A DNA stretch of 64,000 bases from Marsupella aquatica (GCA_973895155.1 OZ316898.1:9886286-9950285); one strand, 5' to 3'. Counted from the first letter of the stretch, positions 11,303 to 64,000 are shown. Made by a program: numbers and translations. The notes: generated by a model from the sequence alone, not told the origin.

Positions 11303-11486
11303 AAATCGCGTGTTCCCCCTCTCAGTTTGCCAACCAAATTGTGACGCAATTTTGATTCTCGTCTTCTTCTTAACGTGGGCGCGCATCATGGACAATCGTC
11401 AGTCATGTGCTGAGGGTGGCCAAATTGGAACATCGCAGTCACCATTCCTTGTTCCTGATTCACAACAAACTTAAGCTCAGGAAACG

Positions 11487-12757
11487 ATGGCGCCCCCATC
11501 CGCGCATCAGAACCAGTGTGGAGACAATCAGAAACTCAGGCCAGAGCATCTGCTTAAGATCGTCGAATGGCTTGAAGATCCTGATAATTTTGCTATGCTG
11601 AATGGGTCAAGTCGTCGTCTGGCAGTTGGGGTAAGACATCCCAACAAAAAGACTGTCTTCAAGCTGATGTTAATGATCTTACACTCCAACGGATTTCCGC
11701 GATTTGTAACCACAGGGGAGAACTTGGGGAAACGATTCAATCGTTACGTAAAGAAATACAAGGAGGCCTTGGCAATTAAATCTGATTCAGGTGAAGGGGT
11801 GACCTTGGGAGAGCTACGTGCGGGAATCACACTGGAGGATAAGCTTGAAAAGATCTGCCCTCACTTTGATCGTATGCATGCTCTATATGGAGAGCGTGCC
11901 AATGTTCAACCTCCAAGCACGGGAACAGCAGGCTTACCGGGAGTGCCTGAGCTTTACATCCACCCATCCGATGATGAGGATGAATCTGCCAAAAATGATG
12001 AGCATATAGGTATGTTTACTGTCCAAGAATGTTGTTGTTTTGGGTATTTCTTGATGAGCAAGAAGCGTGTCATTTACAATGGCGTAAAAATGGATGCCTT
12101 TATTGTGCAGGAGAGCCTGATTCCCAATTTGATTTCACATCGGCTTTTGAGGTTGAGTCTGAACATCTGCACTCACGACCAGAACCGGACATTAGCCAGG
12201 CCACTGAAGAGGCTCACCCAGCTGCCTTTGGGCCATGCCAATCAGAGCAAACCACTAAACAGCCACCTGCAGTGCCAACAGCCAATTCGGAAATTCCAGG
12301 GTCGGATGGTGGTCCTGTTCCAAATCCCACTGCACAACGGAACACTTCTGCCTCAAGGAGACCGGGTAAGAGGCCTGCCAATTCGCAAGCAACTTCAAGG
12401 CCTAATTTGGCTGAATTATATGCAGACAAGATAGCAGAGAAGAACTCATATCGGCAACATATGATTACAGTGAAGGATAAGTGGAGAACTGAAGAACTTG
12501 CTGATAGGCGAGAGGCCAGGGAGATTGTAGCACTTCAGACCCTGAAGAGAGATCGCATCCAAAGAAGAGCAGATGAGAAACGGGCTAGAGCGGACCATTT
12601 ACACCAATTGGCTATGCTGCAAACCCAACAGGCCAACTTCATGTTAACTGAACTTTTAAAGTCCAATAGGAGTCGAGAAGAGATCAGAGACCTGATGAGT
12701 TTAATTCCTGGAGATCCAACTGCGACCAACACTCGTGACACTGGAGATGTGTTGTAG
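11487..12757 (+). CDS. Harbinger ORF2, Myb/SANT-like DNA-binding protein (2 exons, 389 aa)
   Basis: Exons 11487-12009 and 12111-12757 are joined by a GT..AG intron (12010-12110) that restores one frame. N-terminal helical domain ends in LEKICPHFDRMHALYGERANVQP (Harbinger ORF2-like), followed by a low-complexity linker and C-terminal coiled coil. Confidence 0.8.
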
Positions 12758-13559: not shown

Positions 13560-15063
13560 TCATTCAGAGAACAAAAAACCCCCAGGTCTACGATGAAGTT
13601 CGAGAGCCTCATCCATGACCCTCACTAGCAGAGCATTGCCCACAGCAGTAACTCCACGCCTAGAAACATGTTGAGGGTCTGGACCCCTCCCCTCTGGTTC
13701 CGCTTCTGCTTGTGGACCTTCCTCTGCTGTAATGTCAATTTCTGCGTCGTCACTACTGGTCCATTCATCATTTTGGCTCAAGACATAGTTGTGGAGTTTT
13801 CCACAAACCGCGACCCATCTCACCATCCATGCACTGTCCTTCTTTTCATTTAGCTGAACTCTGACTTCTTTCAAAGAATGCCAACGAGATTTTAAAACCC
13901 CAATGTAATGTTCATTTGTGACACGAGCTTTAGCAACACATGTATTGAAGTCTTCTTTGTCAGACACAAGGTCTGCCCTCTTAAAAGCACAAACAAGATG
14001 AGGCAACGCTTGATAACCAGAATCCCCAAGCAAGTATTGGTCTTCTTAAAAAATGTGGGTACTTCCAACACCAGAGCAATAACCCCACAGGGGTGATTTC
14101 CTCAAACATGTGAGGTCGGAGCAGGAACCAGGCATTCCTGCAAAACAAATACAGAGCACAATTTACACTACAACCTTATAAACCCGAAGTCCTAATTAAT
14201 AATACATGTAATAACAAAGTGGAAGTACTTACCTGTGAACATGAAGAGAATCTTCCGTCTGTGGTCACAAATGACTTGAACATTCACGGAATACCTGCAT
14301 TTTCGATCATAGTAGCACTCTCCATGGTGGTGTGGTCGCTGAGTCAGTGGTAAGAGTGATCCATCTATGAGGCCCAAACATCCACGAAAGCCAAGTTTGC
14401 CAAATGCTTCCAGGATCTCTACACGGTCCCTCCTTGTTGGCCATTGAATCTGGTCTTTCAGTGCATCCTCAAGTGCAAGAAATGCACCAAAGTTCCACTG
14501 CTGACGCCCCAGGTTGGGATAAGGTGATTCAGGCAAGCACCATTGCCATCATGCCCAAGACGGTCGAGACAGACAGCCAGCTGCCTCACAATAGGTGTCT
14601 GCAAATGTCTAGACTCATTCTTGAAGATTGGGTGAGGCTCTATCAATTCGAGGAGGTGGAAAAAGGACCTCTTGTCCATCCTTGTCATCTGTCTAAACAA
14701 TCGATCAGGCAAGTTGTGAAAAAACTGTGTTGCAAACTCATTTGACTTTACACTTATGTGACGAGGAACTAAGTAGCGAGTGTTATACATCAAAAAATAA
14801 AGCTCAGAAAAGTCAGCTACATTTTGTGCCTCTTCACAGTCATCTTCTTCGTCAGAGTCAGAGGAATCATCCACATTCGCTCCTGACCCACTGCTGCTTG
14901 AATACTGAGGAGGGTTGATGCAATCAAAGCGCTCGAGTGACCTCAAAGAGCTGTCACTACTTCCACCATCGGAATCGCTCCCAGAGCTATGCAACATGAT
15001 GTTTAATTGCACTTTTTGCTTCACCAGTCTCAAGTGCTTCTGGCGATCAGATACTCGAGGCAT
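13560..15063 (-). pseudogene. Harbinger/HARBI1-like DDE transposase, disrupted
   Basis: FRQMTRMDKRSFFHLL helix, then LIDGS (D), YYDRK.RYSVNVQVICD, GMPGSCSD, LLGDSGY (D), ARVTNEHYIGVLKSRW (E). Intron 14138-14232; frameshift at ~14481; in-frame TAA at 14046-14048. Confidence 0.9.
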
Positions 15064-15300
15064 GATGCTGACAATCCTGGAGACAAGACAGTTGTATGTC
15101 ATAGAGGACATACTTTACAACACAACACATTCATGCTAGCAACCATCTAAATTCGGAAGGTAATTAAAGCTCAAAAATGCACATGACCCACATTCACAAC
15201 AAAGCAGCAAAGAAATGTTGGAAAATTTCAATTTCATTTAAAGGCCTCAAACATTACATACTATGTAACTACATACTACATAGATATGATACTAGTACAT

Positions 15301-15933
15301 TTAATCCTCTAAGTCTGTGCCCTGCAAGGCCACAATAAGATCAGCCAAGATCTTCTTTGCACTTTTAGGTTTCTGTGGGGTGCGAGAAGTCGCTGCCTTG
15401 GCAGGAGTGACCTGAGTAGGACTTGCTGGTGTCTTGTGCCTGTACTGCACAGGACTCTGACAGATATCATCAAGGAGCGAAACTCTCTGGATGTGCAACT
15501 CCAGATCCTTCACGGATATGGTAACATGCAATCTGGGGCATTTTTGCACAATTGCTTGGATTGTCCCCATCTGAATGTGTTCAGACATCTTTGAAAATTT
15601 GAGTGTAGAGGAATTGAGTAGAATCGATGCACTATCCCATATTTGAGCTCGCAATGGCTTGCAAGCAGCATGGACGGCATCAAACAAAATCAATTGGAAC
15701 CTGAATTTATGGACTCCTGGCAGGATATGGCCACATCGGGGTCCAAATTCCAAGGATTTTCCACAAGGAACACCAACAGCAGTATCTAGATACAGGCAGG
15801 ATAAATAAGTGAATTTCCTAGGGTAGGGATTTCGGGCAACATAGTTCCCAACCCAAACATTAGCTCTAAAATATTCAACTTTCCCTGAAACCCTGTTCTC
15901 CTCGATGTCTGTGAGTGAAGTCCATTCAGCCAT
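15301..15933 (-). CDS. RPA1 C-terminal (zinc-ribbon OB-fold)-like protein, ~210 aa, third gene of the Harbinger element
   Basis: FTYLSC...PCGKSL...RCGH...KFRFQLILFD...AQIWDSASILLNSSTLKF parallels the RPA70 DBD-C pattern YxAC..CxKK...C..C...YxLxxxxxD....xFDxxAExLLG. ATG at 15933 follows a TTCCTCCAG acceptor. The frame is open, with a basic C-tail. Confidence 0.6.
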   Translation of the reverse strand: MAEWTSLTDIEENRVSGKVEYFRANVWVGNYVARNPYPRKFTYLSCLYLDTAVGVPCGKSLEFGPRCGHILPGVHKFRFQLILFDAVHAACKPLRAQIWDSASILLNSSTLKFSKMSEHIQMGTIQAIVQKCPRLHVTISVKDLELHIQRVSLLDDICQSPVQYRHKTPASPTQVTPAKAATSRTPQKPKSAKKILADLIVALQGTDLED

Positions 15934-16289
15934 TGCCTGGAGGAACAAAAGGAGAGTGGACATTGAGCAGAGCATGACAGACATTTGAATACACTAAGCA
16001 GAACAGAGTAGAGCATTCAAGTATGTGGAGAATCAAACAGCATGCGCAACATAATGCACAGTAGAAGCAACTGTAGAACAAGGGAGAACTTGGGTAAAAA
16101 ATGGCAAGAAGAACTGCACACCACAATGTCGTTGTCAAAGCTAGCTTGCAACTCGCGCTTCACCAAAGCACTGAAGCCTCTCGCTTCACAGGAACCTAAA
16201 TGTCGTTGCTAAAGAAACCTTCACCGCACGATGCAACATGGACCTTCACGAACAGGACGCAGGACGCAGCAATCACCTGCCGACGCAGC

Positions 16290-16715
16290 CTCAACCTTCA
16301 CGCAGCCTTGACGTTCAGAGCGAGCTTCAGAGCATTTCAGAGCAGCATCGGGGACCTTCAAAGCGCAATTTTTGATTCACGAGGGTCACAGTAGCATCGG
16401 GCAGCCTTGTTGTTCAGAGCACTATGCAACTTGAGCAGCATCGACGACCTTCAGAGCACTATGCAGGTTGAGCAGCTAGCATCGACGACCTTCACGCAGC
16501 CTTGACGTTCAGAGCGAGCTTCAATGCCAATCAGAGCAGCATCGACGACCTTCAAAGGCGCAACCAGCATTCACAAAGCTCACAACAGCGTCGGGCAGCC
16601 TTGACATTCAGAGCACTATGCAGCTTGAGCAGCATCGACAACCTTCACGAGGCTCACAGCAGCATCGGGCATCGACAACATTCAGAGCATTAGGCAGCTT
16701 GGACGACAAGCTTCG
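16290..16715. repeat. mosaic subterminal repeat block of the Harbinger element
   Basis: Interleaved copies of AGCAGCATCGACGACCTTCA (about 5) and GCAGCCTTGACGTTCAGAGC (about 4). Confidence 0.8.
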
Positions 16716-18084
16716 CACAACTCTCAAGCTGCAGCGATGCTGCAAACCACAGTCACGTCCGGTAACCTCAGGCTGGCCTGTCCCGGTCGCGGTCGCTGGT
16801 CTGTCCCGGTCCCGGCAGTAGGTGCAGACTCTAAAACGGCTGACCAACCAGAAAGGGCCGCGGGCCGTCGGACTGAACCGCGGTCAGGCAAATCGGGCCA
16901 AAAAAGTTAATTTTGAGACGCCCTAATGGAATCTTATTAGATTTAGCTGACGTCGTTGCTCACCTGGTAGCGCTTTTCGGTGACCAAAAAAATCCTCAAA
17001 TTTCCACAAATTTTGTTTTACATCATTTCCCTTTGGCAGAATTGTCAAAACTTTCACAAAACTCTGCTGTATATCTGAGTTACTGGCGAAAGCCATTTGA
17101 CAGTTGTGTGATCCTTCAAAATCACATTCCAACTCAACTTACCTCTGGGGGGCTTCATAAGCCTGTGGGTGTGTTTTCATCTAAGCAAAGTGGGGGCCTT
17201 GATGTGTAGATCCTTTTTGGTCTGGCCTAGATTTTTGGTCTGGCCTAGAGTTACTAGGCTAGATTCAGGGTCTGGCAAAGTGGGGGCTTTGATGGGGGCC
17301 AGACCCTGAATCAAAGCTCTTGCTTGGTCCATTGTTTTAGACTATGTCTTGAGGTGGTCCAAGGTTTTGACAAAAAGGGTCTACACATCAACAAAAATAG
17401 GACACACAAGGGCCCCCCTAGCAGGTGACTAGAATCAGTAATGGTCTTGCCTGAATCTGTGGTCCAGTTCGTGCAAAGTGAAGTGTGGCCTGTTCCCACA
17501 CCTCCAATGGCTAGGATTGCATGTCAGTCACAGTCAAGAAAAAAACTGTCATTGAGTTCTTGTAAAGCCACAACCACATCAGTCATTCATGTTCATTCCA
17601 ACGTGAGTTATCCCATAGTAGGATCAGTAATTACATTGCTGATACATGCTCTTTACCCTAAAGACAACTGTGCTCTTTACCCTATGACACCTTGCCATTG
17701 GGATTTCTCGTGGGCTTCATGACAACTGTTGGAATTGTTGGGGGGGGGGGGGGGGAGGAGGAGGGAATACGGGGATAGATTCTACTACGGGCAGGCAAGG
17801 GAACTGGGTTCTCATCAAGTGCTTTTGAATTCATTTTCAAAATTTCAAAATTTTGAAAGGGAACGAGATGGTGCCCCAAAAGTTTATTCCACAAGAGCGT
17901 AGACACCCCAAGAGTTTTTTTCACAAGAGGTTACATTTCTAGTTTACTACACTTGTTTATGTTATGTTTTTTACTCAGAAGAAACTCATCACCACAAGGA
18001 AAGAATGAAGTGGATGGCCTGCATGATGGTTGGAGACTGCCACATCTTCAGAGTACAACCTGGTTTACTTGTCCCTGATAACAG

Positions 18085-38996: not shown

Positions 38997-41704
38997 TGTA
39001 GAGGTTAAATCAGTCTTGGGTTGAACTATGGTTAGTATGTTAACTAGGGTTTACTCTAACCCTAGTTGAAGAGATTGTCCTTATCTCTTCAACTTCTATG
39101 TGGTGTGAGAACACACAAGAGAGTTCTCAAGAGAGAACACAGGGATATAGCAAGGAGATGAGAGCTTGAAGAGATGAGAGCTATGGCAATGCTTGAGTAG
39201 ACACATAACCGTTAATAAAACTTTGTCTTCCCGTGGACGTAGTCAACCTTGAGGCGAACCACGTAACTATTGAGTGTACGTGTATGTTTGGAGATGGGAA
39301 GCACTAGCTTCTTGGATTTCCAAAATGCTTCAAAGTTTGGAAATCTTGGAAACTTTGGAGATGGAAAGCACTTCAAACTTATGGGCAATGAAGTAAATCC
39401 AAACAAACCTTGAGTAATCATCGATAAACGATACATAGTATTGGTTGCCTGAATGTGAGGAAACCGGAACAGGCACCCACACATCAGAATGAATATACTC
39501 AAGTACAGTTTTAGAATGATGAATGGCAATCGGAAATGGAGATCCATCCTCATTTCAAGAGGTCCTAGCTTCTATGGAGAAGCAACAGTGGCAGGCGGCG
39601 ATGTGCATGGAAATGAAATCACTTCATGATAACAAGACTTGGGAACTCACAAGTCTACCTAGTGACAAGCAGGTTGTTGACAGCAAGTGGGTGTATAGGA
39701 AGAAAGATGGACCCACGGAGGAATTTAAGGACACGATGCTGAGAAGATATTTAAGGCTTAGTTGGTAGCCAAGGGGTTTACTCAACAGAAAGGTATAGAC
39801 TACATGAGGCTTTTTCATCTGTAGCAAAGTGTTCAACAATATGTTTGCTATGCGCTCTTGTAGTTTATTTGATCTGGTTTTAGATCAAATGGATGTTGTC
39901 ACAATATTCTTATATGGATCGTTGGATGAGGTGATTTATATGAGGCAACCAGAGGGTTTTGTGCAAAAGGGCAAGAAAAATTTGGTATGCAGATTGCTAA
40001 AATCCTTGTATGGATTAAAACAGAGCCCAAGACAGTGGAACAAGCATTTTGATGAATTTTTGAAATCGCTTGGATTTATGCAAAGCGTGTACGATCCATG
40101 TGTTTACATCATCGATTTGTGCAAAGCGTGTACGATCCATGTGTTTACATCAGGCGTGTGAACAGCACAGGTTTTAAGTTTATCATCCTTGTATTCTATG
40201 TGGATGACATGCTCATTACAGCAAAGGATAGGGGCGAAGTTGATAAGCTTAAGGCCCAACTCAATTTTGAGTTCAAGATGAAGGACTTGGGCACAGCCAC
40301 GAGGATCCTAGGCATGGAGATTGTTAGGGATGTGAACAAAGCCAAACTTTGGCTGACGTAGAAAAGATATGCAGAAAAGGTGCTCTCAAAATTCAACATG
40401 GCAGATGCTAAGGTTGTGAGTGTTCTTTTGGCAAGGCATTTTAATATTTCTCCAGCATTTTATCCATCGGATGCAACAGAAAAAAGTTTGATGTCCAAAG
40501 TTCCTTATGAAAGTGTTGTGGGTAGTTTAATGTATCTCATGGTATGCACCCGACCAGACATAGTTTATGCCGTTAGCAAGGTAAGCAGATACATGGCAAA
40601 TTAATCTAGGAAAAGTTCATTGTTAAGCAGTGAAGTGGATTTTGCGCTACATCAGAGGTTCCACTAAGAAGGGTTTATTGTTTGGTGCAAGTTTAAACAA
40701 TATAAAATTAAGTGCTTCAAGGTTAGGTGGATGCAGACTACGCAGGTGATCTGGATAAGAGAAGATCAACAACTGGATATGTATTTACACTTGCTAGTAG
40801 ATGCATTAGTTGGAAGTCTACCCTCCAAAAGTGTGTTGCAAAGTCTACTATGGATGTCGAGTATATAGCGACAGCAGAAGCAGCATTAGAGACCATTTGA
40901 TTGAAAAGGTTTGTCACAGAGATGGGCTTATCACAAAATTGTGTGTATCTTCATTGTGACAGTCAAAGTGCAATTTACACTACCAAGAATTAGGTGACGG
41001 ATGGCAGGGTAAAGCACATTGATGTCCGCTATCATTTCGTCCAACATACATTATTGGATGATGAATTTGAGCTTGTCAAGATTGATGGAAAGCTTAATCC
41101 AGCGGATGCTTTTACCAAAGTATTAGACTCCAATAGTTTTTCAAGGCATTGTCATTATTTACAAATATTGTAAATATAGAGTTAACCAAGAAAATGTCTC
41201 TATATGAGTACTCCATCTGATGACTTATCGACTGCGGCTTAGTTCTAGTTAACCTTTGCATTAGGGGGAGGGTCTTTTGGCCCTACTGTCTTGAACTTCC
41301 CGCATAGGAACTTGTAAGGAAAAGACAATATTATGAACCCTCCCAAGACATGAGTTAAGGGGGAGTTTGTAGAGGTTAACTTAGTCTTGAGTTGAACTAT
41401 GGTTAATATATTAACTAGGGTTTACTCTCACTTTAGTTGAAGAGATTGGTCCTTATCTCTTCAACTTCTATGTGGTGTGAGAACACACAAGAGAGTTCTC
41501 AAGAGAGAACACAGGGATATATCAAGGAGATGAGAGCTTGAAGAGATGAGAGCTATGGTGATGCTTGAGTGGACACATAACCATTAATAAAGCTTTGTCT
41601 TCCCATGGACATAGTCAACCTTGAGGCGAACCACGTACCGGACCACGTAACTATTGAGCACGTGTTTGTTTGGAGTGTTTTTCCTGACCTAATTTCTCCC
41701 CACA
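38997..41704 (+). mobile_element. Ty1/copia LTR retrotransposon, internally deleted
   Basis: 5' LTR 38997-~39292 (truncated) and 3' LTR 41368-41704 (TG..CA) are highly similar. TSD GTATA (38992-38996; 41705-41709) and PPT AAGGGGGAG. Decayed RT (WQAAM..EM.SL..NKTWEL, QMDV.T.FLYG, LLKSLYGLKQSPRQW, YVDDMLI) and RNase H ([25 protein letters not shown]). Confidence 0.95.
39520..41172 (+). pseudogene. Copia reverse transcriptase-RNase H remnant
   Basis: Successive ORF fragments 39523-40604 plus RNase H motifs to ~41170. Multiple stops and frameshifts, including a 41-bp tandem duplication at ~40074-40152. Confidence 0.9.
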
Positions 41705-48425: not shown

Positions 48426-51091
48426 CTAAACGTCCTGTTTGATGACTTCCTTTGTATCAACATCGCTGAAGACCCGTCGTCGAAAATCCTCTACCATGAG
48501 AGGGAGACCATCCCTCAAAGATATCTTTGGTGCCCAGCCGAGAAATTCCTTTGCCTTGCTGATGTCAGGCTTGCGCATGTGAGGGTCATCCGCAGTGTTC
48601 TCCTTGAAGGAGATCTTAGCATTGGGGTCAATGACCTCTTTCACGACCTGCAGAAAAGAACATTTGTAACAACCATCGAAAGACGTGAGCGTGACTGCTC
48701 ATCAACATACCACCGACAGAAAGGCAAAGGAAGCACCCATCACAGAAAATATATGCAATCCAAGATCTAACAGAAGAGGTGCTTACGTCTGCAAGTTCCA
48801 GCATAGTGAATTCTCCAGGATTTCCAAGATTGAAGGGACCAATGTGGTCACCATCCATAAGCTTCATCAAACCTTCGACCTGCAGTTGCCAAAAAGAGTC
48901 AGATGATCTCTTTTCACGTCCAAGCAGAGTTGCAAAACTAAGTGGAACACGAGCCTCCTCTAACGTCTGAAGGAATACGAGGACATCGACAATTCTGACA
49001 CAAGAATTTCCACTGGCCTGAAATTACTTTCCCTATTCCAATAATAGGGATCACGATACAAGTTCAAATCAGTTCAGAAAGAGTAGTTGCCTACGGTATC
49101 CTTGGAAGACTTACCAAGTCGGACACATATTGGAAACTTCGTGTTTGTTTCCCGTCACCATAGACGGTCATAGGCTCCTTGCGAAGGGCCTGCAGCAGGG
49201 CGAGAAGTTGAGCCGAATGGATCCTATGTCAGAATACTGACGTGCCACGGGAAGCAGGCAACCCTACTACAAAGCGAACGAGAAAGGAGCATGCAGCCAC
49301 AAATGCACTTCACATAGCTTGAGAGGCAAATAATAAAAAAGTAAACGCAAATATGTTGCTCATGCCCTAGAAAAGCTTGTCCGTTGGGGAGCATTGTAGA
49401 TCAGAACCTGAGCTACGAAATTGCTGACGACACGGCCATCATCGACGCACATCCTAGGCCCATAGGTATTAAAGATCCGAGCAATGCGAACCTGCACCAC
49501 AATGATAAAATCTTCTTAAAATACTCAAGTTATCGTTAGACCCAGAGATCAGAAGAACGAATCACATTATCCGTCACAGCAATGCTTGATGTTTTGCTCT
49601 GACAGACAGAACCGGGTATGTCACTGCAAAACTCGACACCCACCTCCACATTGGCTCCCCTGTGGTAGTCCATCGTCAAAGTTTCTGCCACTCGTTTTCC
49701 CTCATCGTAACAACTCCTCACACCTGGGCAAGACAGATCAAGTCAATCACCGCAATGTGCAATCTAAATGCTAAAATAACATGTAGTTAGTACACCTAGT
49801 GTAAAATCACACCAGCATCGATTCAATTACTAAACTGGAACATATAAGCGTTCATCATATTGAGTATGTGAAATTCGATAAGAAAGAGGGCACCCACCGA
49901 TTGGGTTCACATTCCCCCAGTATTCTTCCTTCTGAGGATGCTCCAGGGGATCTCCGTACACCTCGCTGGTGCTAGTGAGCAAGAATCTGGCTCCCACTCG
50001 CTTCGCAAGTCCCAGCATGTTGAGAGTTCCTACCACATTTGTCTTGTAGGGTCGGGAATTAAGGAAAAAGACATTCACAAAGCACAAATTCTGCATCAGA
50101 ATTGGATCCAACAAAAATGCAGCAGGAATAGAGACATCTGCCAGAGCTTCAGGGCTAGGAGATCAGCTTCTGGCCCGTTCATGACATAAAATCAAAATTA
50201 GGTACGACATATTTGGGACGAGTTCTTGAGGGAGGCCACCGCGATTCACAGTCAAGCCCCCCCTCGAACATGACATTGACCGAGTCTTGGTTAGAGCAGT
50301 GCACGCACGGAAAGAACAGAGCCCATGAGAGCCAACTTTCTGATCAAGGAGCTACCGTACTGACTGAAGACATCACCAAATGACACCTAAAAATCCGCAT
50401 TCACTGCTTTGTGGATCAAACCGACTAGAGCATTGATTGGAAGTAACACAGAAGAGGATATGATGGTCTTGACGGGGTTGAACTTGTAATGAACAGGGGA
50501 AGCCGGGCACGCTAAGTGGTAGATTTGATCCACTTCCAGGAGGATTGGCTCCACCACATCGTGCCGGATCAGCTCGAACCGGGGATCGCCAAAGTGCTTC
50601 TGCAGATTCTCCTTCCTGCCGGTGAAAAAGTTGTCGAGCACGATCACACTGTCTCCACGTTCCATGAGTCTGTCCACGAGATGGCTGCCCACAAAGCCGG
50701 CCCCTCCCGTCACAACAACCCTCAGGCGCTTCGTCGTCAGGCCGAGTGGAATCTTGCCACCAGCGCTGGTGATCGCGGGGTGGGGCAACGATGATTCCAA
50801 GCTCATCCGATGCCCGAAGGTTTCCATCAACCGGGTCTCCGTCGCCAGCGAGTTCTTGTCGAATGTCTGACGCGACCGCTCAGCGAACAGATTACCCGGC
50901 TGCAAAACGAACACTGCCGTTGCAATTGCCATCCCGACGAGGACGAACAGCAGGCGCTGCTCTTTCAGCATGTACTCCACCCCTCTCACATTTGCCCATG
51001 GCTTCTTGGGCTTTGCAGAATAGGTTTGGGCCAGCTGCGGCACCTCCCCCTCCTGACGCCGATGGTTCAAACTCATGTTGCCGCTCATCAT
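48426..51091 (-). CDS. UXS: UDP-glucuronic acid decarboxylase (UDP-xylose synthase), membrane-anchored type, 7 exons, 443 aa
   Basis: Exons 50462-51091, 49898-50045, 49644-49723, 49408-49491, 49115-49189, 48787-48879, 48426-48647. N-terminal TM ([14 protein letters not shown]), [63 protein letters not shown]. Confidence 0.97.
50046..50461 (-). other. U12-type (minor spliceosome) AT-AC intron, UXS intron 1
   Basis: 5' end ATATCCTC, branch site TTCCTTAAT (50066-50058) 12 nt before the 3' end, which is AC. Removal gives the conserved NPVKTI|KTNVVGT. Confidence 0.93.
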
Positions 51092-52134
51092 CGTCAATCT
51101 CTCCTTTCCTCTGCCTACTCCACTACACTGCACTCCACTACAGCACACCACACCAACCGATCGAGACCGCCTCTACATTGACCACAATCAATGTCCGATC
51201 TCAAGCTTCCACGCTTAAAACCCACCACGAGCGATCGATCGCTCCTTCAACAGATCGATCGATTAATCCCACACACCAAAAACCACCCAGCCGATCAAGA
51301 AGCCGTCACCCGCCTACACCTGAGAAATCAACATCGCCCACCCGCACGAAAATCTGAACAATCAATCGACACTCCTGCAGCCGATCTCACCACTCTACTC
51401 TGGTACCAGATCCGATCCGATCTGCTCGCTCGGCGGAACTCAGTGCGTAATCAGAGCGGAAGAACTCGGAGCGAGAGGTCCGAAGCGAGGCAAGGAATCA
51501 TCGGAGCCAGCTCTCGCTTCATCATTTTCTTTGTAGGCGGCTGCGCTCCGTTGGGGACTTAGGGGGAGCTGATTATTGAATGAATGGGGAGGGAGAGAGA
51601 GAGGGAGGGAGAGAGAGGGGGAGGCAGGGACGAACGAGGAAAGGGAGGGAAATTTGGCAGATCGGATCTGCGAGCTCGAAATCGAAAGGTGCGTCTGGCC
51701 CGGACTTGACCACCTTCTTGTGTGTGCTCAGCAGCCGCACAATGTATGTCCGAGAGAAGACAGATAGACTCCTGAAAACTGGCAGATCCAGCGTTTTTCT
51801 TGATGGCGAAAAGCCGCCAAGTTTCGCGTCATTTTAATAGAGTTTTTCGTAAAGTGAGACAACCATCATTTTCCTTCCAATTCAGGGTGAGTTAAAGTTT
51901 GAACCTGGCCTCAATAGTGCTGTCTCAAAGTTTTGATAAAGGAATGGTCATACCTTTTTCGCAAGGTTAAGTTAAAGTCATTTTTATTTATTTTCTGTCG
52001 CCAGCCCCTAGAGACACTACCCATCCTTACGGCAAAAGGTTATAGATTATGAATTTCATAGTTTGTAACGTTGGTGTTCATACCCGGGGACTAGGGAGTT
52101 AATGTCCACCAAATTGTCAGCTTTGAGAGGCGCT

Positions 52135-52765
52135 AATGACTCATGTTTAGAATTCCAATTCAGGGTGAGTTGACGTTCAATCCTAGCCTCAACCAACTCA
52201 CATTGAGAAGAGAGTGAGTTAACATTTAAACCCAGCCTCAACGACTCATGTTTAAAACTCCAATTCAGGGAGAGTCAACTTTGAACAAGGCATCAATGAC
52301 TCACATTTAGAATTCCAATTGAGGGTGAGTTAATGTTTGAACCCAGCCTCAGCGATTCATGTTTAGAATTCTTATCCAAGGTGAGTTAAACACGTGAACC
52401 CAGCCAAAACAAATCACGTTTAGAATTCCAGTTCAGAGTGCGGGAATGGTTGAACCTAGCCTCAACCACTCACGTTCTGAGTTTAGAATTCCAATTTAGG
52501 GTAGGTTAACAACCGAATCCAGCCTCAACCACCCACTTTAGAATTTAGAATTCATATTCAGTGTGAGTTAACATTCAAACCTAGCCTCAACAATTCATGA
52601 TTAGAATTCCAACTCAAGGTGAGATAACAATCAAACCTAGCCTCAACAATTCATGTTTTATAGTTCCAACTTAAGGGAGTTAACATTCAAACCCAGCATC
52701 AACTACTCATGTTTAGAATTCCAACTCAGGGTGAGTTAACATTCAAATCCAGCAATGTTTAGAAT
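52135..52765. repeat. minisatellite, ~58-bp unit, ~11 diverged copies (plus an isolated copy at ~51875-51915)
   Basis: Consensus approx ACTCATGTTTAGAATTCCAA(T/C)TCAGGGTGAGTTAACATTCAAACC(T/C)AGCCTCAAC, head to tail with no unique spacers. Confidence 0.9.
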
Positions 52766-56570: not shown

Positions 56571-58054
56571 AAAGGTCACAAAGTGCATTACATAAATAAG
56601 ATTACAACTACAAAAACCATGGAATGGTGCAATTGTTGTGTAGAGAGTCGTCTCATCCCCCTGTCCATTATTCTACTGGGACTCAGGCATTCTATATCCT
56701 TTGTTAGGCCAAGGCGGATTGGTTCTAAGGGATTAGCCAAATCCCTGGTTGCTACCAGAAATGCAGTTTACCCCAGAGCTCGACAAAGGACTTTTCAGTT
56801 TGTGCATGGCTCAGTAGGGCTTTAGTTCTTTTGCCATCTGGACTCTTGGACTTTGTGGCTATTGAGCTTTTTGCATCTTTGGTTTCTTGGTAATTCTTCA
56901 GTTGTTTCCTCCCTTTATTAAGTGTTTGACCTTGGACTCCTATCTCCCAATAAGGCACTTTTTGCTCTATGGCAAAGAATACCAAAAACACAATTCAAAG
57001 AAAGGCCATAAGAGTAAATCAAAGCATCAAATGGAGTGCAAAGAGAGGAACAACTATCTTGCAATCTACGGCTCTTTGAATGGATCCTAAGTCAAGTTAG
57101 TCTTTGCCGGTTTCTTTGTCTGAGTTAATAGCTGGTGAGTAATCATAGGGTTTGATTTGGGGTTTGATGAACAGATATTGCCCTGATGTCATGTCGAGGG
57201 ACAGTGCCGCTTGTGCACATCGGCATGTCCCTCGCATGCCCGCTAGGTATGGTTAGGGCTAGTGTACTACCTGAGTTAGCGACATGTTCTTGTAGCAAGT
57301 CTGGGCCGTTCTTGAAGCAAATGTGCTTGTTAGTGTGACGCCAGGACTTTACTTGCTTAGGGCATGTCTTTCTTTGTGGGTTTTTCAGTTCTTCTTGAAT
57401 CGCTGTGAGACAGAGTTTTTCAGAGGCTGCTCGTCGGTTCCGTACACGGAATTCACACAGTGATTCGTTAGATGCTCCCGGCCGATCTTGGCATCTCGCC
57501 GGTTTTCGATTCGATTTCAGTACATTTGTTTCTATCACGCCTTTTTATTCAAGAAGAACTGCCGAGTTAGCGGTGAGGAGAAGAAGATTGCTCGTGGCAA
57601 TTTCGACAATTTCTGGTGAAGCCATTGCAATTTCTTCGACGGACATTGGAGTGACGAGTTAAAAGTTATGGGCTTATTGTGGTGTTATGTGTATACATAA
57701 CAAGGGGCCCGGATTTTTCTTTCCCTGCCGCAACCTGTTTCGCAACTTGCTGTTGTCGACTGCTGCATCGACGCGACTGCACCCGCGCTCGCATTTTTAA
57801 CAACCTCTTTGGGGTCGTTTTTGCATTCCCGGCCACGGCTGCCAGCGAGTTTGCCTCGGCCACCTCGCGACTACCTCGCGCCCCTATTACATCCTTATGT
57901 TCTCGGCCATGCGCCTCCCCTCGGCACTTTTCCCCTTCCTGGCATCTCATTTTCCGATGCCGCTGCCAGTTTCCTGCCGTTGCCATTAAAGCAGGGGAGG
58001 GGAGTTCAATTCGAACTCCCTCACTCGGGAGTAGATTTTCGCCCCAGACCAAGG

Positions 58055-58445
58055 CTGCAAGGCAGGAGCGCAAGGAGAGGGCCCGGGGCCCTATGCTGCA
58101 TTAAAAGGAGGAGAGGGAGTACATTCGACTCCCTCCTCTTGGGAGTCACACTTCTGCCAGGCACAAGGCCCCATTCAGCATAAAGAGGGGGAGGAGTTGA
58201 AGCGAGACTGCAAGAGGAGAGGGCACAAGGCCCCATTCAGCATAAAGAGGGGGAGGAGTTGAAGCGAGACTGCAAGAGGAGAGGGCACAAGGCCCTATGA
58301 AGCATTAAAGGGGGAGGGGAGGGGAGTACATACGACTCCTTCCCTCAGGAGTCCATCTACCAGGGCACAAGGCCCACAGAAGCCTTTAAGGAGGGGAGAG
58401 GGAGCTCGTAGCTTCCCTTTGAGAGCTCATAAAGAGGGGGTGGCG
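58055..58445 (+). repeat. purine-rich tandem repeats in the retroelement LTR/leader
   Basis: 62-bp unit GGCACAAGGCCCCATTCAGCATAAAGAGGGGGAGGAGTTGAAGCGAGACTGCAAGAGGAGAG x2 exact (58160-58283), with diverged flanking copies. Confidence 0.9.
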
Positions 58446-59067
58446 CAAAGCCCTATCCAGGGCTCGAGCACTTAAGGTCTGTTTTGCTTTTCCCTCGCCT
58501 TGAGTCCCATTTACTGCTTTCTGACTTGCCTGGCTCTTTGCGATCTGCATAGGGAAACGACCTGCACAGACCCGTTTTTCCATTTTCCGACCCCAGATGC
58601 CGCGACCTGCAACCCGTGGGTTGTAGCCGGCAAGGCGTCGACCTGCCTCAAATGCCGCGCGAGAACCTCCCTCCGACTGCATAGGGCACCGTGCCTGAGT
58701 GTGTATACACACTCGCTCGGTTGCCGGTCCCCACCTGATTTTCCTTTTCCGTCGATGCGCGCCTTCCGCCCGTTCCCGGGTCCACATCGGGCCCGATGCA
58801 TATAATTACGGGGGGTCCCGATGTATACACTTCAGGGGGGTCCATTTCACTATATTTTTTTCACTGCCGCTGACATTCGGCCTTCCCGGGCATTTGGTAG
58901 CCGCCGGTAATCCACATAGGGCTACACGCCCGGGTATACACATTGAGGCCACGGCATTTCTGCCTCAAGCCGTTTGCTTCATTGTGGGTTAATTTTTTAG
59001 CCTTGGGCCTGCCATTTATTTTTCTTGTCAGTTTCTTTCCCATCGGCACCCCAGGTGAGCATGCAGC

Positions 59068-62000
59068 ATGTCAGCAGAGGAGCCCAGTTGTAGCAGCACA
59101 TCGCCACCGACACCCAGGTACCACTTACAGAGTGATCCACGACCGTTGGTGCCCATTTCATTGGAGTCTCGGCAATTTCGACGACGTCAGCAGACATCAG
59201 CAGCACCCACACCACGTAACCCTTCTGCTACATTTGGCGGTCGCTTCACCACTACCCCGAAGCCTACTATCACTTCCTTGCCATTTACCCCTTCTGCATC
59301 AGTGGTTGTTCCAGCTTCACCGACATACAGCATGGATGCTAGTCACTCATCTGGCCGCATTGAGCGCTTCAGCGGGCGGCCAGGCACTGTCTCTTTACGT
59401 GAGTTCAAATCCACTTTCTACACTGTCGTTTACGAATTGGAGTTGAAGTATGGCAGCAATTTCACAAATGCTTTTGCATTTAAGCAGCTAGCCAGGTATG
59501 TGCACCATGAGGCGTTGGATGTGTATGAGCAGCACTCTCAATGGCTGCTTGCTGTCACACAGTTGCCTAACCCTACCTATGCCAGTGCAATTACGGCAGC
59601 CTCACAATTGGCCTTACAGAATGCCATTGCAGCCCATGCTGCTGCTCCTGCCACTTCCCCTCCTACTCCAGTTCCCACCACTGCGCCAGTTACTCCCACT
59701 GTCTTGGCACAGGCTACATCAGGCATTTCTCCCACCATTGATTCCCCTGCCTTTGCTGATCCAGTGGCTGAGTTTTTCCACGTTCTTGAATTGGAATTCC
59801 CAATCAAGAGTGCTGATAAAATCATGCAGTTGGCCACCTTTGTGAGGCAGCGCGATGAAACATTGAAGATGATGTATCGCCGGCTTCTCAAGCTGAAGGA
59901 GGACACCCAGAGCATCACTGACCTGGAAGCTGCTCATCGCTATCTTCGCGCATTGGAGGGCACACCAGCTCTCCATTCGCAAGTGTTGCAGCAAGTATTC
60001 TCAGAGTTTGGCGACAGCTACACCCTACTCAATGTCTATGATACTGCTGAGAAACTTGAGTTGGCCCATGCACATTATGAGGCCAGTATTGCGCGTCCAC
60101 CGCGATCCAGGTACCAGGCTGCTGCTCCTACAATGGCCACCCCGTCTCGTGTGCCACAGTATGCTTCCAAGACCAAACCAGCACATGCTGCTTTCATGCT
60201 GCCATCTTGCAACTACTATGGCAATCCTAATCACAAGGCTAATGAATGTGATATTGTTGCTGAGGACCTGTCTTGTGATTTTTGCGGGAAAGTGGGCCAC
60301 TTGGAGGCAGTTTGTTTTGCCAAATTCCCAGAGCGGAAGCAGCTACGACAACAGGCCACTCATCCTGCTCCTGTTTCCACTCCCCCACCAGCTAGGAGGG
60401 CTCCTACTGCATCAGTTGCTCCTCCTTCCAGTGGCAAAGCACCCGGTGCTAACAAATTGCCCAAGCAGCCACAGAAGCAACCAGCTCAGAAGGAGGCTCA
60501 CAACGCACAGGCAACTCAACTCCAGTCTCTGACTCATGAGGTTGAGTCCTTACGTGCCCAACTTGCCAACATCAAAGGCAAGTCCACTGCCTCTGCTGGT
60601 CCTTCTCAACCGGCTCGTCACGTGCAACCCATCCCTGGCCCAGGCACCGCTGACAATTCAGCACCTCTCCCCCGCTCTTTCTATGGCTTACCATTTGATG
60701 CTCATATGGATGAGTGTGTGCTGTCCTCTGCTCCACAGCCTGGCCTTACAGCAGAATTTTCAGATTCATTCTGCCCTTCCTATTTTGCTTACCAGCAGGC
60801 CAGTGCTGCCTCCCGTATTGCTCCCACACGCCGCATTGTACAGGCTGATGGTCTTGCTGCCGGTCCTCTGACTAGAGCCAGGGGCGCTCGGGCTGTCATG
60901 CCCCAATCTTTTCAGCCACTCACACTTGCTGAAGAGCGCACCTTGTTGGCGAGGGGGGAGGGAGCTGCAGCTACATCCATTCCACCACCAGGTGCTGCTG
61001 ACATTTCACAGGGAGTTGTTTCTCCTGAGCTGCTTGAGCATTTCACCTCCGGTATGGCACAAAGGATTCTTACAACTCCACTTTTCAGTTGCCATGATTT
61101 ACAGCTGGATGCTAGAGCTGTCATCAGACCGCTAGAGGGCTCACTGCATTCTTCATCAGCCCCTGTGACACCGGTTTTGGAGGTCCAATCTCATGTACAT
61201 ACTGGACCTTTTTCTTCTCCTTTACATGTTCCCATTGGTTTGGCTACCCCAATACCGATTGCTGCTGATTGTGTGACCAGAGCTACACTTGATTCTGGTC
61301 ATGCTGCTCCATCTTTCCTGGCTATGTTGTTGAGTGGAAAGACCGTGGACACTAACTCCCTTCACAAGGTACCTCATCATTTGCCAAGAGTGGTGCCTAG
61401 TGACAGGACTTCAGTTTCCACCACCATTGCCATTGTTGACAACAGGAATTCAGTGGTCAAGTTGGAGGGTCACACTCCTCAGGTGGTCATGCTAGACACA
61501 GGTGCTCAACCAGTGATATTGGGCATTCAATTTGCCAAGAAGATGGGACTGCTGACTGATCATTTACAGCAATCCAAGTGGCACATTCGGACTGCTAGTG
61601 GCACTGTGGAGGATGTGTTGGGTGAGAGTTCTACTTTACTCACTCTCACTTTTAATGGAGGTACAGATCAGGAACTGCATTTCCCAGTCAGATGTTTGGT
61701 TACCAATGCCACTACGTATGATGTGCTCATTGGCCAGGAGGCTTTGTTCCCACCAGGTTTTACCATTGACAACTGGCATGAGCATGCATACTACAGAGTT
61801 GATTGGCATACGGATGGCTCACACTTGGGCTATATTTCACTTGATTTGCATGGTGCCCATACTCCTATGGCTCACCACTGTGTGTTGAAAGCAGTGCACA
61901 CAGCTACCTATGTCAACCACCCATTGCAGGATTGGATTGAGGAGGATGATGATGAGGTGGCTACTACACATGCTGCTGCATGTATAGCAGCACTTTCCAG

Positions 62001-62094
62001 CAACGTGGATCATCAACCAGAGGTGGTACAACGGCTCCAAGCAGCCCATGGACCTTTGATGGCTGCATTGCACAAATTTGAGGACCTTGGGTAG
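59068..62094 (+). CDS. retrotransposon Gag-protease (1008 aa open frame)
   Basis: Gag-like start RIERFSG..VSLREF and MHR-like QRDETLKMMYRRL. Zinc knuckles CNYYGNPNHKANEC (one Cys lost) and CDFCGKVGHLEAVC (~60208-60315). Aspartic protease VMLDTGA (DTG 61495-61503) and YDVLIG. Confidence 0.88.
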   Translation: MSAEEPSCSSTSPPTPRYHLQSDPRPLVPISLESRQFRRRQQTSAAPTPRNPSATFGGRFTTTPKPTITSLPFTPSASVVVPASPTYSMDASHSSGRIERFSGRPGTVSLREFKSTFYTVVYELELKYGSNFTNAFAFKQLARYVHHEALDVYEQHSQWLLAVTQLPNPTYASAITAASQLALQNAIAAHAAAPATSPPTPVPTTAPVTPTVLAQATSGISPTIDSPAFADPVAEFFHVLELEFPIKSADKIMQLATFVRQRDETLKMMYRRLLKLKEDTQSITDLEAAHRYLRALEGTPALHSQVLQQVFSEFGDSYTLLNVYDTAEKLELAHAHYEASIARPPRSRYQAAAPTMATPSRVPQYASKTKPAHAAFMLPSCNYYGNPNHKANECDIVAEDLSCDFCGKVGHLEAVCFAKFPERKQLRQQATHPAPVSTPPPARRAPTASVAPPSSGKAPGANKLPKQPQKQPAQKEAHNAQATQLQSLTHEVESLRAQLANIKGKSTASAGPSQPARHVQPIPGPGTADNSAPLPRSFYGLPFDAHMDECVLSSAPQPGLTAEFSDSFCPSYFAYQQASAASRIAPTRRIVQADGLAAGPLTRARGARAVMPQSFQPLTLAEERTLLARGEGAAATSIPPPGAADISQGVVSPELLEHFTSGMAQRILTTPLFSCHDLQLDARAVIRPLEGSLHSSSAPVTPVLEVQSHVHTGPFSSPLHVPIGLATPIPIAADCVTRATLDSGHAAPSFLAMLLSGKTVDTNSLHKVPHHLPRVVPSDRTSVSTTIAIVDNRNSVVKLEGHTPQVVMLDTGAQPVILGIQFAKKMGLLTDHLQQSKWHIRTASGTVEDVLGESSTLLTLTFNGGTDQELHFPVRCLVTNATTYDVLIGQEALFPPGFTIDNWHEHAYYRVDWHTDGSHLGYISLDLHGAHTPMAHHCVLKAVHTATYVNHPLQDWIEEDDDEVATTHAAACIAALSSNVDHQPEVVQRLQAAHGPLMAALHKFEDLG

Positions 62095-62160
62095 CATAAT
62101 GGACAACCAATAGCCCCAATCTTGAGCGCACCAGTTACATGGACTCCTCCTTCAGATGGC

Positions 62161-63100
62161 CTTACATTGCTTGAGCTTTTTGGTGGCATTTCTACAGGCC
62201 TGGAAGCTCTCCTACAGTCTGGCATGGTGGTGAAGCAGTACATCTATGTGGATATTGATCCAGGTGCAAGGCAAGTGGCTGAATCCCGTCTGCTGGAATT
62301 TTCAGAGCGATTTCCTCAGCAGTTTCCACACAGTGCATGGAAGTCTGCATTTTCTTTCTTTCCTCCAGATATCCAGCTTGTCCAGCACCGGCACTTAACC
62401 CTTCTTGGCTCCCTTGATTTGATCATAGCTGGTTGGGAATGCCAAGGGTTTTCAGCTGCTGGTCACGGTGCTGGACTGCATGATTCTCGTTCTGGCCTTT
62501 TCACAGCATTGGTTCAGATTCTCACCTGGGCTCAATCCCTTTATCCTGCTGTTGGTTATATCATTGAGAATACTCCATCTCAGTTTGACCAGCGTCCATA
62601 GGTCAAAGAGGATTTCAGTGTGGTCCAGCACTACTTGGGACCACCCCTTCTCATTGATGCAGTGCATTGTGGTTCTTATGCACATCATCTTCGTAACTTT
62701 TGGACTAACCTTGCACCACCTTCCTTGCTGGAGATGGCTCTTCACCACACATCTAGGGACACTAACCTTACAGTGGACCAGATTTTGGATCCTGACAGTT
62801 CTTGCCAACCAGTTACACGGCAAGAGCCAGCACCTTGGTATCCAACTAATACCATTGGACAACCCCGTGCTGCTTGGCCTACATTTGTGTCCTTTCCAGG
62901 TGCACATGCTTTTCAGGGTGATGGTCCTGGGCTGGTTTATCGACATTCTACCGGTACATGGGATGAACCTAGTCCTGAGGAGAGAGAACGGGCTATGGGC
63001 TTCCAACCCGGTACTACAGGTCACACCAAAATCACCAGGCTGGCCAGGAATGCTTTACTTGGCAGGGTAATGGATCTCAATGCTCTCACTTGGCTTCTGG
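62161..63100 (+). pseudogene. C5-cytosine DNA methyltransferase domain (DNMT3/DRM-like fold, unpermuted motif order) within Pol
   Basis: Motifs in canonical order: I LLELFGGISTG, II YVDID, III DI, IV IIAGWECQGFS (Cys 62440-62442), V DSRSGLF, VI YIIENT, VIII HHLRNFWTNL, IX ERERAMGF, X LLGRVMD. One internal TAG at 62599-62601. Confidence 0.9.
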
Positions 63101-63439
63101 TCACTTGCATCCTTTTTCAGATGTACATTCCTCCAGCATTAGGAGCTCCAGCCTTACCACTCCATAGTGCTGCTGCATGGCATCCAGACCAGGTGCACTT
63201 ACCGCTGTCCAACACTCACCACTTCAGTCCAAGTGTTGGGGGGGAGGAGGTCCCTTGTAATGTGGCTGACATTATTTCTGAGTTTCATGGTGTGGACCAC
63301 TTCAAATCAGCAGGTACAACAGGCCTTGGAGAGGCCTCATTACCTTATGAGCAGCATGCTAGCAGCTTGGACAGTGGAGAGGCTGGCACTTCTGGCTCTT
63401 CAAGCACGAGTACATCAGGTCCTATTCCTAGTGTTGCCA

Positions 63440-64000
63440 ACTACACATTTATCATGGGCAACCACCTGAGTAAAAGACAGAAGGACCAGCTGCTGAATTT
63501 TCTCCTCAAGCATGAGAATGTGTTTGCTTTCTCTATGAAGGACTTGGGTAAGTGCAAGACTATGCAGTTCTCCATTGAGTTGGCTGATGAAACACCTATC
63601 TTTAGGCGGAGACACCGTTTGAGTAAGCATGAGTGGCAGCTGGTGGATGAGAGGTGCCAAGAGCTTTATGAAGCTGGTCTTATTCAGCCATCTACATCAG
63701 ATTTTGCAGCAGCTACAGTGATGCCAGCAAAGAAGGATTCCAGTGGATTGTGGACAGAGAAGCGCATGTGTGGGGACTACAGGCCATTGAACCTGGTACC
63801 CCATGCCGCGGCCAGAGGAGCTATTTGACAGCATTGGAGACTCAGACATCTTCACTCTTGTGGATCTAAGGCAAGGCTTCAACCAGATTTTGCTACTTGC
63901 AAAGGACCGTAAGAAAACAGCTTTCCATGGTAGTAACCAACTATGGGAGTGGTTGGTGATGCCATTTGGCTTGAAGAATGCGCCCATATTCTTTCAAAGA
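63440..64000 (+). pseudogene. Ty3/gypsy reverse transcriptase (N-terminal part, frameshifted)
   Basis: VFAFSMKDLG, ELYEAGLIQPSTSDFAA, KKD..RMCGDYRPLN, then a frameshift at ~63795, then YPMPRPEELFD..IFTLVDLRQGFNQI..DRKKTAF..MPFGLKNAP. Confidence 0.93.

Follow-up and report, generated by a model that had tools for sequence, protein, structure and literature searches.

A decayed Ty3/gypsy-type element with a predicted DNMT3-type methyltransferase domain between protease and reverse transcriptase in a liverwort-like genome

Retrotransposons that carry their own cytosine-C5 DNA methyltransferase have been described from a few lineages. De Mendoza 2018 (PMC5890265) reported Dnmt3-related domains inside the Pol open reading frame (ORF) of a Gypsy element of Klebsormidium nitens; its text describes few copies with a DIRS-like repeat arrangement, conserved key residues and a Ka/Ks below 0.2, and calls the function unclear. 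The roles suggested there are cDNA methylation, protection from editing, insertion-site effects and self-limitation, with effects on the host and RNA methylation likewise raised as possibilities. The same text ascribes de novo CG methylation to the Dnmt3-type enzyme of SymbioDIRS-Dnmt3 from Symbiodinium, and treats SymbioDIRS-Dnmt3 and SymbioLINE-Dnmt as independent acquisitions. EpiLTRs and DAM-LTRs (Fernandez-Moreno et al. 2026, bioRxiv 10.64898/2026.05.21.726589) are long terminal repeat (LTR) elements with DNA methyltransferases and a chromatin-reader domain; their DNMT, reported as sister to DNMT4, is paired with a Dam-like adenine methyltransferase and a chromodomain. According to the text of that preprint, DAM-LTRs are absent from Streptophyta, and "streptophytes (Gypsy-DNMT3)" are cited as earlier work only. 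No description of DNMT-bearing retrotransposons from land plants was found in the literature we searched, which included 26 of the 33 titles citing PMC5890265; the supplements of that paper may name further taxa. Here we analyse a 64,000-nucleotide stretch of DNA (OZ316898.1:9886286-9950285; "the window", with positions counted from its first letter), the end of which holds a Ty3/gypsy-type LTR retrotransposon with a DNMT-like domain in its polyprotein.

A single frame of the + strand runs through the end of the window as stop-to-stop ORFs at 59059-62094, 62095-62601 and 62602-63828, separated only by TAG codons at 62092-62094 and 62599-62601. From 59332 this frame encodes, in order, Gag, protease (PR), a C5 cytosine methyltransferase and reverse transcriptase (RT), so that 59332-64000 makes up the 5' portion of an LTR retrotransposon of the Ty3/gypsy type. 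An earlier annotation made by a model from the nucleotides alone (the sequence-only reading) had described three ORFs sharing one frame and split by single TAG codons, together with the methyltransferase motifs, a catalytic Cys in GWECQG and an ENV-like Glu; our coordinates agree with it on each, and the Pfam comparison it called for places PF00145, the protease models and RVT_1 all above their cutoffs. It is amended on the zinc knuckles, described below, and in two further respects: it opened the first ORF at 59068, and collinearity with the relative P0038 points to the ATG at 59332 as the likely Gag start; it also kept RT in the Gag frame, and RT in fact changes to the +2 frame at ~63796-63798. 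At a probability of roughly 0.85, we read 59332-64000 (with a start probably at ~57.7 kb) as the 5' part of a dead Ty3/gypsy-type copy in a liverwort-like genome, with a DNMT3-type domain between PR and RT and with the function proposed below. Its features are as follows.

57690-59331, + strand: probable 5' LTR and long leader (presumed; boundaries not delimited)
58160-58317, + strand: 62-bp tandem repeat inside the presumed leader/LTR, 2.6 copies, 94% matches, two copies 100% identical
59332-61455, + strand: Gag, opening with its likely ATG at 59332, and the spacer ahead of the protease; from this Met the frame is collinear with all of P0038 (residues 1-1214) at 62% identity
60208-60249, + strand: first zinc knuckle, damaged by a Tyr that has replaced its second Cys, reading CNYYGNPNHKANEC
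60274-60315, + strand: second zinc knuckle, intact C-X2-C-X4-H-X4-C, reading CDFCGKVGHLEAVC
61456-61746, + strand: retropepsin-type aspartic protease, PF13975 (gag-asp_proteas) with E 7.9e-7 and 30 bits (cutoff 28.2)
62092-62094, + strand: first in-frame TAG, in the PR-DNMT linker, private to the window copy
62161-63114, + strand: DNMT3-type C5 cytosine methyltransferase domain, PF00145, motifs I, IV, VI, VIII, IX and X unpermuted
62440-62442, + strand: catalytic Cys of motif IV (GWECQG), Cys in 64/64 aligned relatives
62599-62601, + strand: second in-frame TAG, falling between motifs VI and VIII of the DNMT and private to the window copy
62686-62688, + strand: private substitution of His for the conserved first Arg of motif VIII in the window copy
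63115-63528, + strand: poorly conserved DNMT-RT linker, proportion of nonsynonymous differences (pN) 0.27-0.33 against 0.17-0.21 in the DNMT
63529-63798, + strand: N-terminal part of RT in the Gag frame, up to a short frameshifting deletion, aligning with the RT start of relative P0004
63791-64000, + strand: RT (RVT_1) in the +2 frame, truncated where the window stops, PF00078 at 63791-63997, E 7.7e-9, 36 bits against a cutoff of 29.6

The relatives of this element indicate that the methyltransferase travels with it. P0004 is a single 820-residue ORF comprising DNMT, RVT_1 and RT_RNaseH, collinear with the window at 69% identity; P0038 is a 1214-residue ORF with Gag, protease and DNMT; and P0006 of Calypogeia fissa joins protease to DNMT, is collinear with the window at 68%, and contains the nearest relative of the window's DNMT domain (76%). 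Marchantia polymorpha Mp_4g09160 (P0039, 1278 residues) combines Gag-CCHC, a protease region and a DNMT. In metagenome contigs, at least 580 stretches encode relatives; 80 loci were retained from these, and the window DNA matches them at 65-70% over 59318-64000, unbroken from ~61350. In a comparison that covered direct repeats, the 19 loci measuring 15 kb or more fall into nine with direct repeats of 236-312 bp (spacing 8.6-11.5 kb), two with other repeats and eight with none. One locus, L001, measures 9.1 kb between its outer LTR ends, with LTRs at 5843-6134 and 14691-14982 that are 91.8% identical, and its single frame, split by single stops, encodes protease, DNMT, RVT_1, RT_RNaseH, Integrase_H2C2, rve and PHD. 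From the order between the L001 LTRs and from the collinear relatives, the family layout is LTR-Gag-PR-DNMT-RT-RH-IN-PHD-LTR (RH, RNase H; IN, integrase) with LTRs of ~300 bp. Because the window frame is collinear with P0038, P0004 and P0006, the DNMT is an inherited part of this family and not a chimeric one.

We next characterised the methyltransferase domain itself. PF00145 (DNA_methylase) matches 62095-62598 with E 2.7e-7 and 30.8 bits against a cutoff of 22, and the read-through frame, with the stop as X, with 27.4 bits. The motifs lie at 62170 (LELFGG), 62431 (GWECQG), 62560 (IIENT), 62680 (motif VIII), 62980 (ERERAMGF) and 63055 (LLGRVMD), in the conventional I-X naming; the Glu of motif VI, at 62566-62568, is Glu in 65/65 relatives. 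A family profile built from 13 sequences (A1) finds DNMT3A at E 1.3e-25 and DNMT3B/3C at ~1e-23, DRM-type plant enzymes at 1e-12 to 1e-14 and M.HhaI at 3e-7, and its alignment to DNMT3A takes in motif I, then IV-VIII and then IX-X. The AlphaFold2 (AF2) model, computed for the window domain with the stop read through as X and with a 66-row alignment, has a mean predicted local distance difference test score (pLDDT) of 95.7 and a predicted template modelling score (pTM) of 0.93. When this model was compared with the PDB by Foldseek, the top 50 matches listed were all DNMT3A, DNMT3B or DNMT3C (best E 5.7e-18; template modelling score by target at most 0.85), so that the nearest solved structures of the predicted fold are DNMT3 catalytic domains. 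Pfam found no PWWP or ADD reader domain on the window ORFs, and the DNMT3 type accordingly applies to the catalytic domain only.

At columns conserved in at least 85% of the family, the window keeps the family residue at 43/44; the sole deviation is the first Arg of motif VIII, His in the window and Arg in 95% of 64 relatives, by which the Arg-x-Arg kept in the family is broken in this copy. Key positions are conserved throughout the family: Cys116 in 64/64, Glu158 in 65/65, Gly31 in 52/52, Arg200 in 92% and Asn205 in 63/63. Across 188 family domains, motif IV carries Glu-Cys (EC) in 91, Pro-Cys (PC) in 53 and other variants in five, with none recognised in 39, and the EC and PC forms are both present on either side of the DNMT tree described below. 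Judged by the model and these alignments, the family retains a DNMT3-type fold with its catalytic and cofactor motifs.

Nei-Gojobori counts of the window against L001, L019, L010 and L056 gave a pN of 0.17-0.21 for the DNMT, with a proportion of synonymous differences (pS) of 0.70-0.73, which is saturated. The protease has a pN of 0.19-0.20 and N-terminal Gag of 0.22-0.26, both with saturated pS, and the two linkers reach 0.27-0.33. The resulting dN/dS of 0.07-0.12 is rough because dS is saturated. Over the divergence of the lineages compared, the DNMT has been under purifying selection as strong as that on the protease.

This copy itself is dead. We aligned contigs of four public runs (X1, X2, X3 and X5, from organisms A, B and C) on 59332-63999, obtaining 5599 contigs from X1 (1999 of them at least 99% alike), 3067 from X2, 681 from X3 and 399 from X5; the summed contig depth is very high, yet is not a copy number. 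The first letter of the first TAG, position 62092, is C in 30147/30490 (X1), 30271/30582 (X2), 1248/1248 (X3) and 108/108 (X5) of the depth, and that of the second, position 62599, is C in 19127/19268, 6639/7156, 1207/1207 and 18.5/18.5, respectively. At position 62687, in the His codon of motif VIII, all depth in the four runs is G, not A. Loose ends at 63795 and 63797 in X1, X2 and X3 show that other copies have extra letters where the window copy shifts frame. The window copy is thus disabled by two private C>T stops, by the private Arg>His change of motif VIII and by the deletion that shifts the frame where RT starts; its family looks young and is abundant in at least one liverwort-like host. 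Each stop arose by C>T at a CAG, which is a CHG site, whereas the His codon goes back to G>A at a CG site; the three private changes would match deamination of methylated cytosines in a silenced copy.

The host was placed by a neighbouring gene. An exon at 50405-51091, within an interval at 50387-51172 (- strand), encodes the N-terminal part of UDP-glucuronate decarboxylase (UXS), with a membrane-anchor-like stretch at its N-terminus, and its best matches are Calypogeia fissa (84% over 100% of the query), another protein (75%) and Marchantia paleacea (68%). Together with the proximity of the DNMT to Calypogeia P0006, this indicates a liverwort-like genome and hence a land plant. The sequence-only reading had gone further and proposed a land-plant lineage of such elements; the host half of that proposal is borne out by the UXS exon, and the separateness of the lineage is not, because the element shares its tree side and PR-DNMT layout with elements of Klebsormidium and Closterium.

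Over 1.84 billion representatives, HMMER found 16011 proteins with E values of 1e-3 or less, of which 541 reach 1e-30 or lower; the top 150 have E values no higher than 7e-79, and many are polyproteins of 1000-3456 residues. Mapping RT, RH, IN, PHD and PR by segments from P0004, P0044 and P0038, with which Pfam agreed on five proteins, we distinguished two layouts: PR-DNMT(-RT-RH-IN) and RT-RH-DNMT-IN-PHD, the latter complete in 47 proteins. In a FastTree phylogeny of the 188 DNMT domains, one branch (SH-like support 98) parts 52 rows from 136. The 52-row side holds 25 PR-DNMT and 27 unassigned rows and no RH-DNMT-IN row; the 136-row side holds 104 RH-DNMT-IN and 32 unassigned rows and no PR-DNMT row. 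A quick IQ-TREE search on 66 rows picked from both sides recovered the identical split (SH-aLRT 98). Neither tree is rooted, and host DNMT3, DRM, CMT and MET1 are absent from both. Named members on the window's side are Calypogeia, Marchantia, Closterium spp. and the P0056 cluster, and the opposite side has two chlorophytes, Scenedesmus sp. PABB004 and Monoraphidium neglectum, as its named members; Sphagnum is also among the named relatives. P0056 (1272 residues; zf-CCHC and DNMT) is collinear with the window's PR-DNMT at E 4e-61, and its cluster, drawn at 90% identity, includes Klebsormidium nitens GAQ80424.1. On account of the tree side and PR-DNMT layout that it shares with the K. nitens cluster and the Closterium elements, the window element is of the published streptophyte Gypsy-DNMT3 kind, extended into bryophytes and not specific to land plants.

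A PHD finger (PF00628, E 2.9e-10) follows the integrase core in L001:13307-14461, and likewise in P0044, P0045 and P0118, so that a PHD finger behind the integrase is common to both layouts of the DNMT-bearing family. Chromoviruses have a chromodomain at this place. In P0044 and P0045, which are RT-RH-DNMT-IN-PHD polyproteins, several hundred residues extend past the PHD finger; inspected by eye, they contain a glycine-rich motif resembling that of class-I methyltransferases, together with an S/T-P-P/W-F motif. Pfam gave no match on this stretch, which may be a second methyltransferase.

For live copies, we propose that the polyprotein would be cut by the element protease, leaving the methyltransferase free or still joined to RT, and that the enzyme would likely methylate cytosines of the new cDNA or of the fresh insertion. 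In that case new copies would carry the mark from the outset, limiting damage to the host and concealing the copies among methylated repeats. The PHD finger linked to the integrase would likely read histone H3 tails and thereby steer insertion or methylation.

Several observations weigh against this reading or narrow it. RH, IN, PHD and the 3' LTR would lie beyond the end of the window, and the 5' LTR is not delimited. The window's motif IV has Glu-Cys where Pro-Cys is the usual dipeptide of DNMTs; Glu-Cys at this place is not known from an active C5 methyltransferase, and a Glu instead of the Pro could alter catalysis. In the metagenome, a single high-scoring segment pair spans the DNMT core at 73 loci (not at seven others), and every one of these 73 cores contains stops, 1-13 each. 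Intact copies are hence rare in that metagenome host, and the metagenome family is old, unlike the family of the window copy. No RNA source was listed for the window copy, which does not bear on its expression. As the trees are unrooted and lack cellular DNMTs, they show neither a single capture nor a donor. GAQ80424.1 is probably one of the published KnitGypsy-Dnmt3 copies, and the functional half of our reading is, in our assessment, carried over from the discussion in PMC5890265.

The main rival is a pseudo-enzyme, in which the DNMT is kept for a structural or a DNA- or chromatin-binding role and does not methylate owing to its Glu-Cys. That EC occurs in 91 of the 188 family domains, including the window's, speaks for it, but all other catalytic and S-adenosylmethionine-binding positions are kept in the family, PC and EC alternate on both sides of the tree as would be expected if both work, and the constraint on the DNMT equals that on the protease. 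The key residues conserved in the Klebsormidium copies and the CG methylation by a DIRS-borne Dnmt3, as given in the text of PMC5890265, tell against it as well, and we consider the loss of activity unlikely. Still less likely, in our view, is an enzyme that acts not on its own cDNA but on the host genome (the chromatin of the insertion site, or genes in trans, as counter-defence or by-product) or on RNA. These targets are raised in the discussion of PMC5890265, a PHD finger on the integrase of relatives would suit chromatin targeting, and the host runs show the family at very high abundance; the DNMT, however, adjoins RT in the polyprotein, which would favour action on cDNA.

It is highly improbable that the DNMT is foreign to the element, whether as a piece of a host gene, as a nested insertion or through chimeric assembly of this one locus. 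The only hint in that direction is that two stops flank and interrupt the segment, but both are private point changes; moreover, both junctions are collinear in independent relatives from other sources, the homology to the 80 metagenome loci is unbroken over ~61350-64000, and contigs from four public runs span the whole stretch. The sequence-only reading had assigned the DNMT between PR and RT to the element while allowing for a separate insertion or a chimera; the collinear relatives and L001 sustain the assignment and refute the latter two. We accordingly rejected chimera and nested insertion, on the collinear relatives, the order in L001, the unbroken DNA homology and the contigs of the four runs, and retain a dead gypsy-type copy whose DNMT3-type domain belongs to its polyprotein.

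A broader scenario joins these observations: DNMT3-armed gypsy elements would form one ancient green-lineage family, which captured the domain once before the chlorophyte-streptophyte split, later moved it within Pol (RH-DNMT-IN versus PR-DNMT-RT), survived into land plants and, in leafy liverworts, was active until recently with a very large number of copies, with an active enzyme and a PHD finger pre-methylating insertions and perhaps shaping the bryophyte methylome. We regard this scenario as tentative and, taken as a whole, rather doubtful; were it true, the members in Marchantia polymorpha would permit a direct test in a genetic model. Cytosine methylation is the main weapon of plants against transposons, so a transposon family with its own de novo methyltransferase would invert the usual picture. 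In the literature we searched, the streptophyte cases are known only from Klebsormidium and are said to have few copies. The family seen here is far larger and more widespread than print suggests; it reaches Marchantia, and the division between its two layouts follows the green lineage. Experimentally tractable hosts, first among them Marchantia, make the methylation target, the activity of the Glu-Cys form and PHD targeting approachable. For annotation, a caution follows: "DNMT3-like" matches in bryophyte genomes may be transposon genes.

The remaining parts of the element were also surveyed. The protease additionally matches PF13650 (E 2e-5, above cutoff) and has its DTG in MLDTGAQ at 61489-61509. 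In Gag, the sequence-only reading had counted two CCHC knuckles, of which the one at 60274-60315 is intact and the one at 60208-60249 is spoiled by its Tyr; P0038 reads C-X2-C-X4-H-X4-C at the first site, and both of its knuckles are intact. Pfam zf-CCHC did not reach E 1 on the window's Gag ORF and does match the relative P0056, to which the window Gag has a weak collinear match (22.6% over 371 residues, E 9e-10). Further upstream, the GC content in 100-bp bins rises from 0.38 to 0.56 at ~57700 and then remains high, and in the relative L001 a 292-bp 5' LTR begins ~1.5 kb upstream of the point corresponding to window 59318. Within the window there is no second LTR copy or repeat of any upstream segment (a 3' LTR would be past 64000), and upstream of ~59200 there is no DNA match to relatives. 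The primer-binding motif presumed for initiator tRNA-Met has no match in the leader and two elsewhere, against 4.9 expected by chance. A scan of the leader for bacterial promoters and terminators was uninformative, as its models are not eukaryotic.

Elsewhere in the window, a tandem array of a ~56-bp repeat (at least eight copies, 62-87% identity) lies beside the UXS gene at 52111-52753. A pair of ~270-bp direct repeats at 38997-39265 and 41368-41637 (90-96% identity, spacing 2.37 kb) could represent LTRs, in which case they would bound a small non-autonomous element. Nested direct repeats of ~79 bp, spaced by 194 and 74 bp, occupy 16285-16721. Several ORFs of 218-319 residues lie at 11475-12757 (+ strand) and 14458-15993 (- strand), and the product of 14458-15114 shows, by eye only, a likeness to the N-terminal region of PIF/Harbinger-type transposases; Pfam gave no match on the ORFs at 1244, 11475, 12002, 14458, 15301, 57143 and 57701.

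Among described systems, KnitGypsy-Dnmt3 is the closest: as far as the text of PMC5890265 describes it, it shares with the window family an unpermuted Dnmt3-related domain in a Gypsy Pol ORF, key residues that are kept and purifying selection, and the P0056 cluster with K. nitens GAQ80424.1 shares the Gag(CCHC)-PR-DNMT layout, the tree side and a collinear Gag and PR-DNMT. It differs in that the window's host is a land plant and that the window DNMT is only ~29-36% identical to the Klebsormidium cluster. KnitGypsy-Dnmt3 is also described with few copies and DIRS-like repeats, whereas the window family fills thousands of contigs of public runs and its relatives show, among direct repeats, one plain ~300-bp LTR pair. 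The PHD finger after the integrase in these relatives has no mention in the text of PMC5890265.

The chlorophyte RT-RH-DNMT-IN-PHD elements (Scenedesmus sp. PABB004 "pol", Monoraphidium neglectum) have a homologous DNMT (35-42% identity) alongside RT, RH and IN of gypsy type, with a PHD finger behind the integrase, but carry the DNMT between RNase H and integrase where the window family has it between protease and RT; in the literature we searched, no paper on them was found, and they are known as database proteins. SymbioDIRS-Dnmt3 and SymbioLINE-Dnmt are, by the text that describes them, likewise retrotransposons bearing a C5 methyltransferase, of the tyrosine-recombinase DIRS and LINE classes and from another host lineage. 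EpiLTRs and DAM-LTRs, as presented in the preprint's text, resemble the window family in uniting LTRs, a DNMT and a chromatin reader, with a DNMT4-like enzyme in theirs and a DNMT3-type one in the window's. Cellular DNMT3A, DNMT3B and DNMT3C share the catalytic fold and motif order and give the best sequence and structure matches, at an identity of ~20%; in contrast to them, the window polyprotein has no PWWP or ADD by Pfam and has Glu-Cys in motif IV, and its target recognition domain (TRD) region is longer (a 340-residue model against targets of 270-290 residues). Plant DRM2 is circularly permuted, and the window domain is not.

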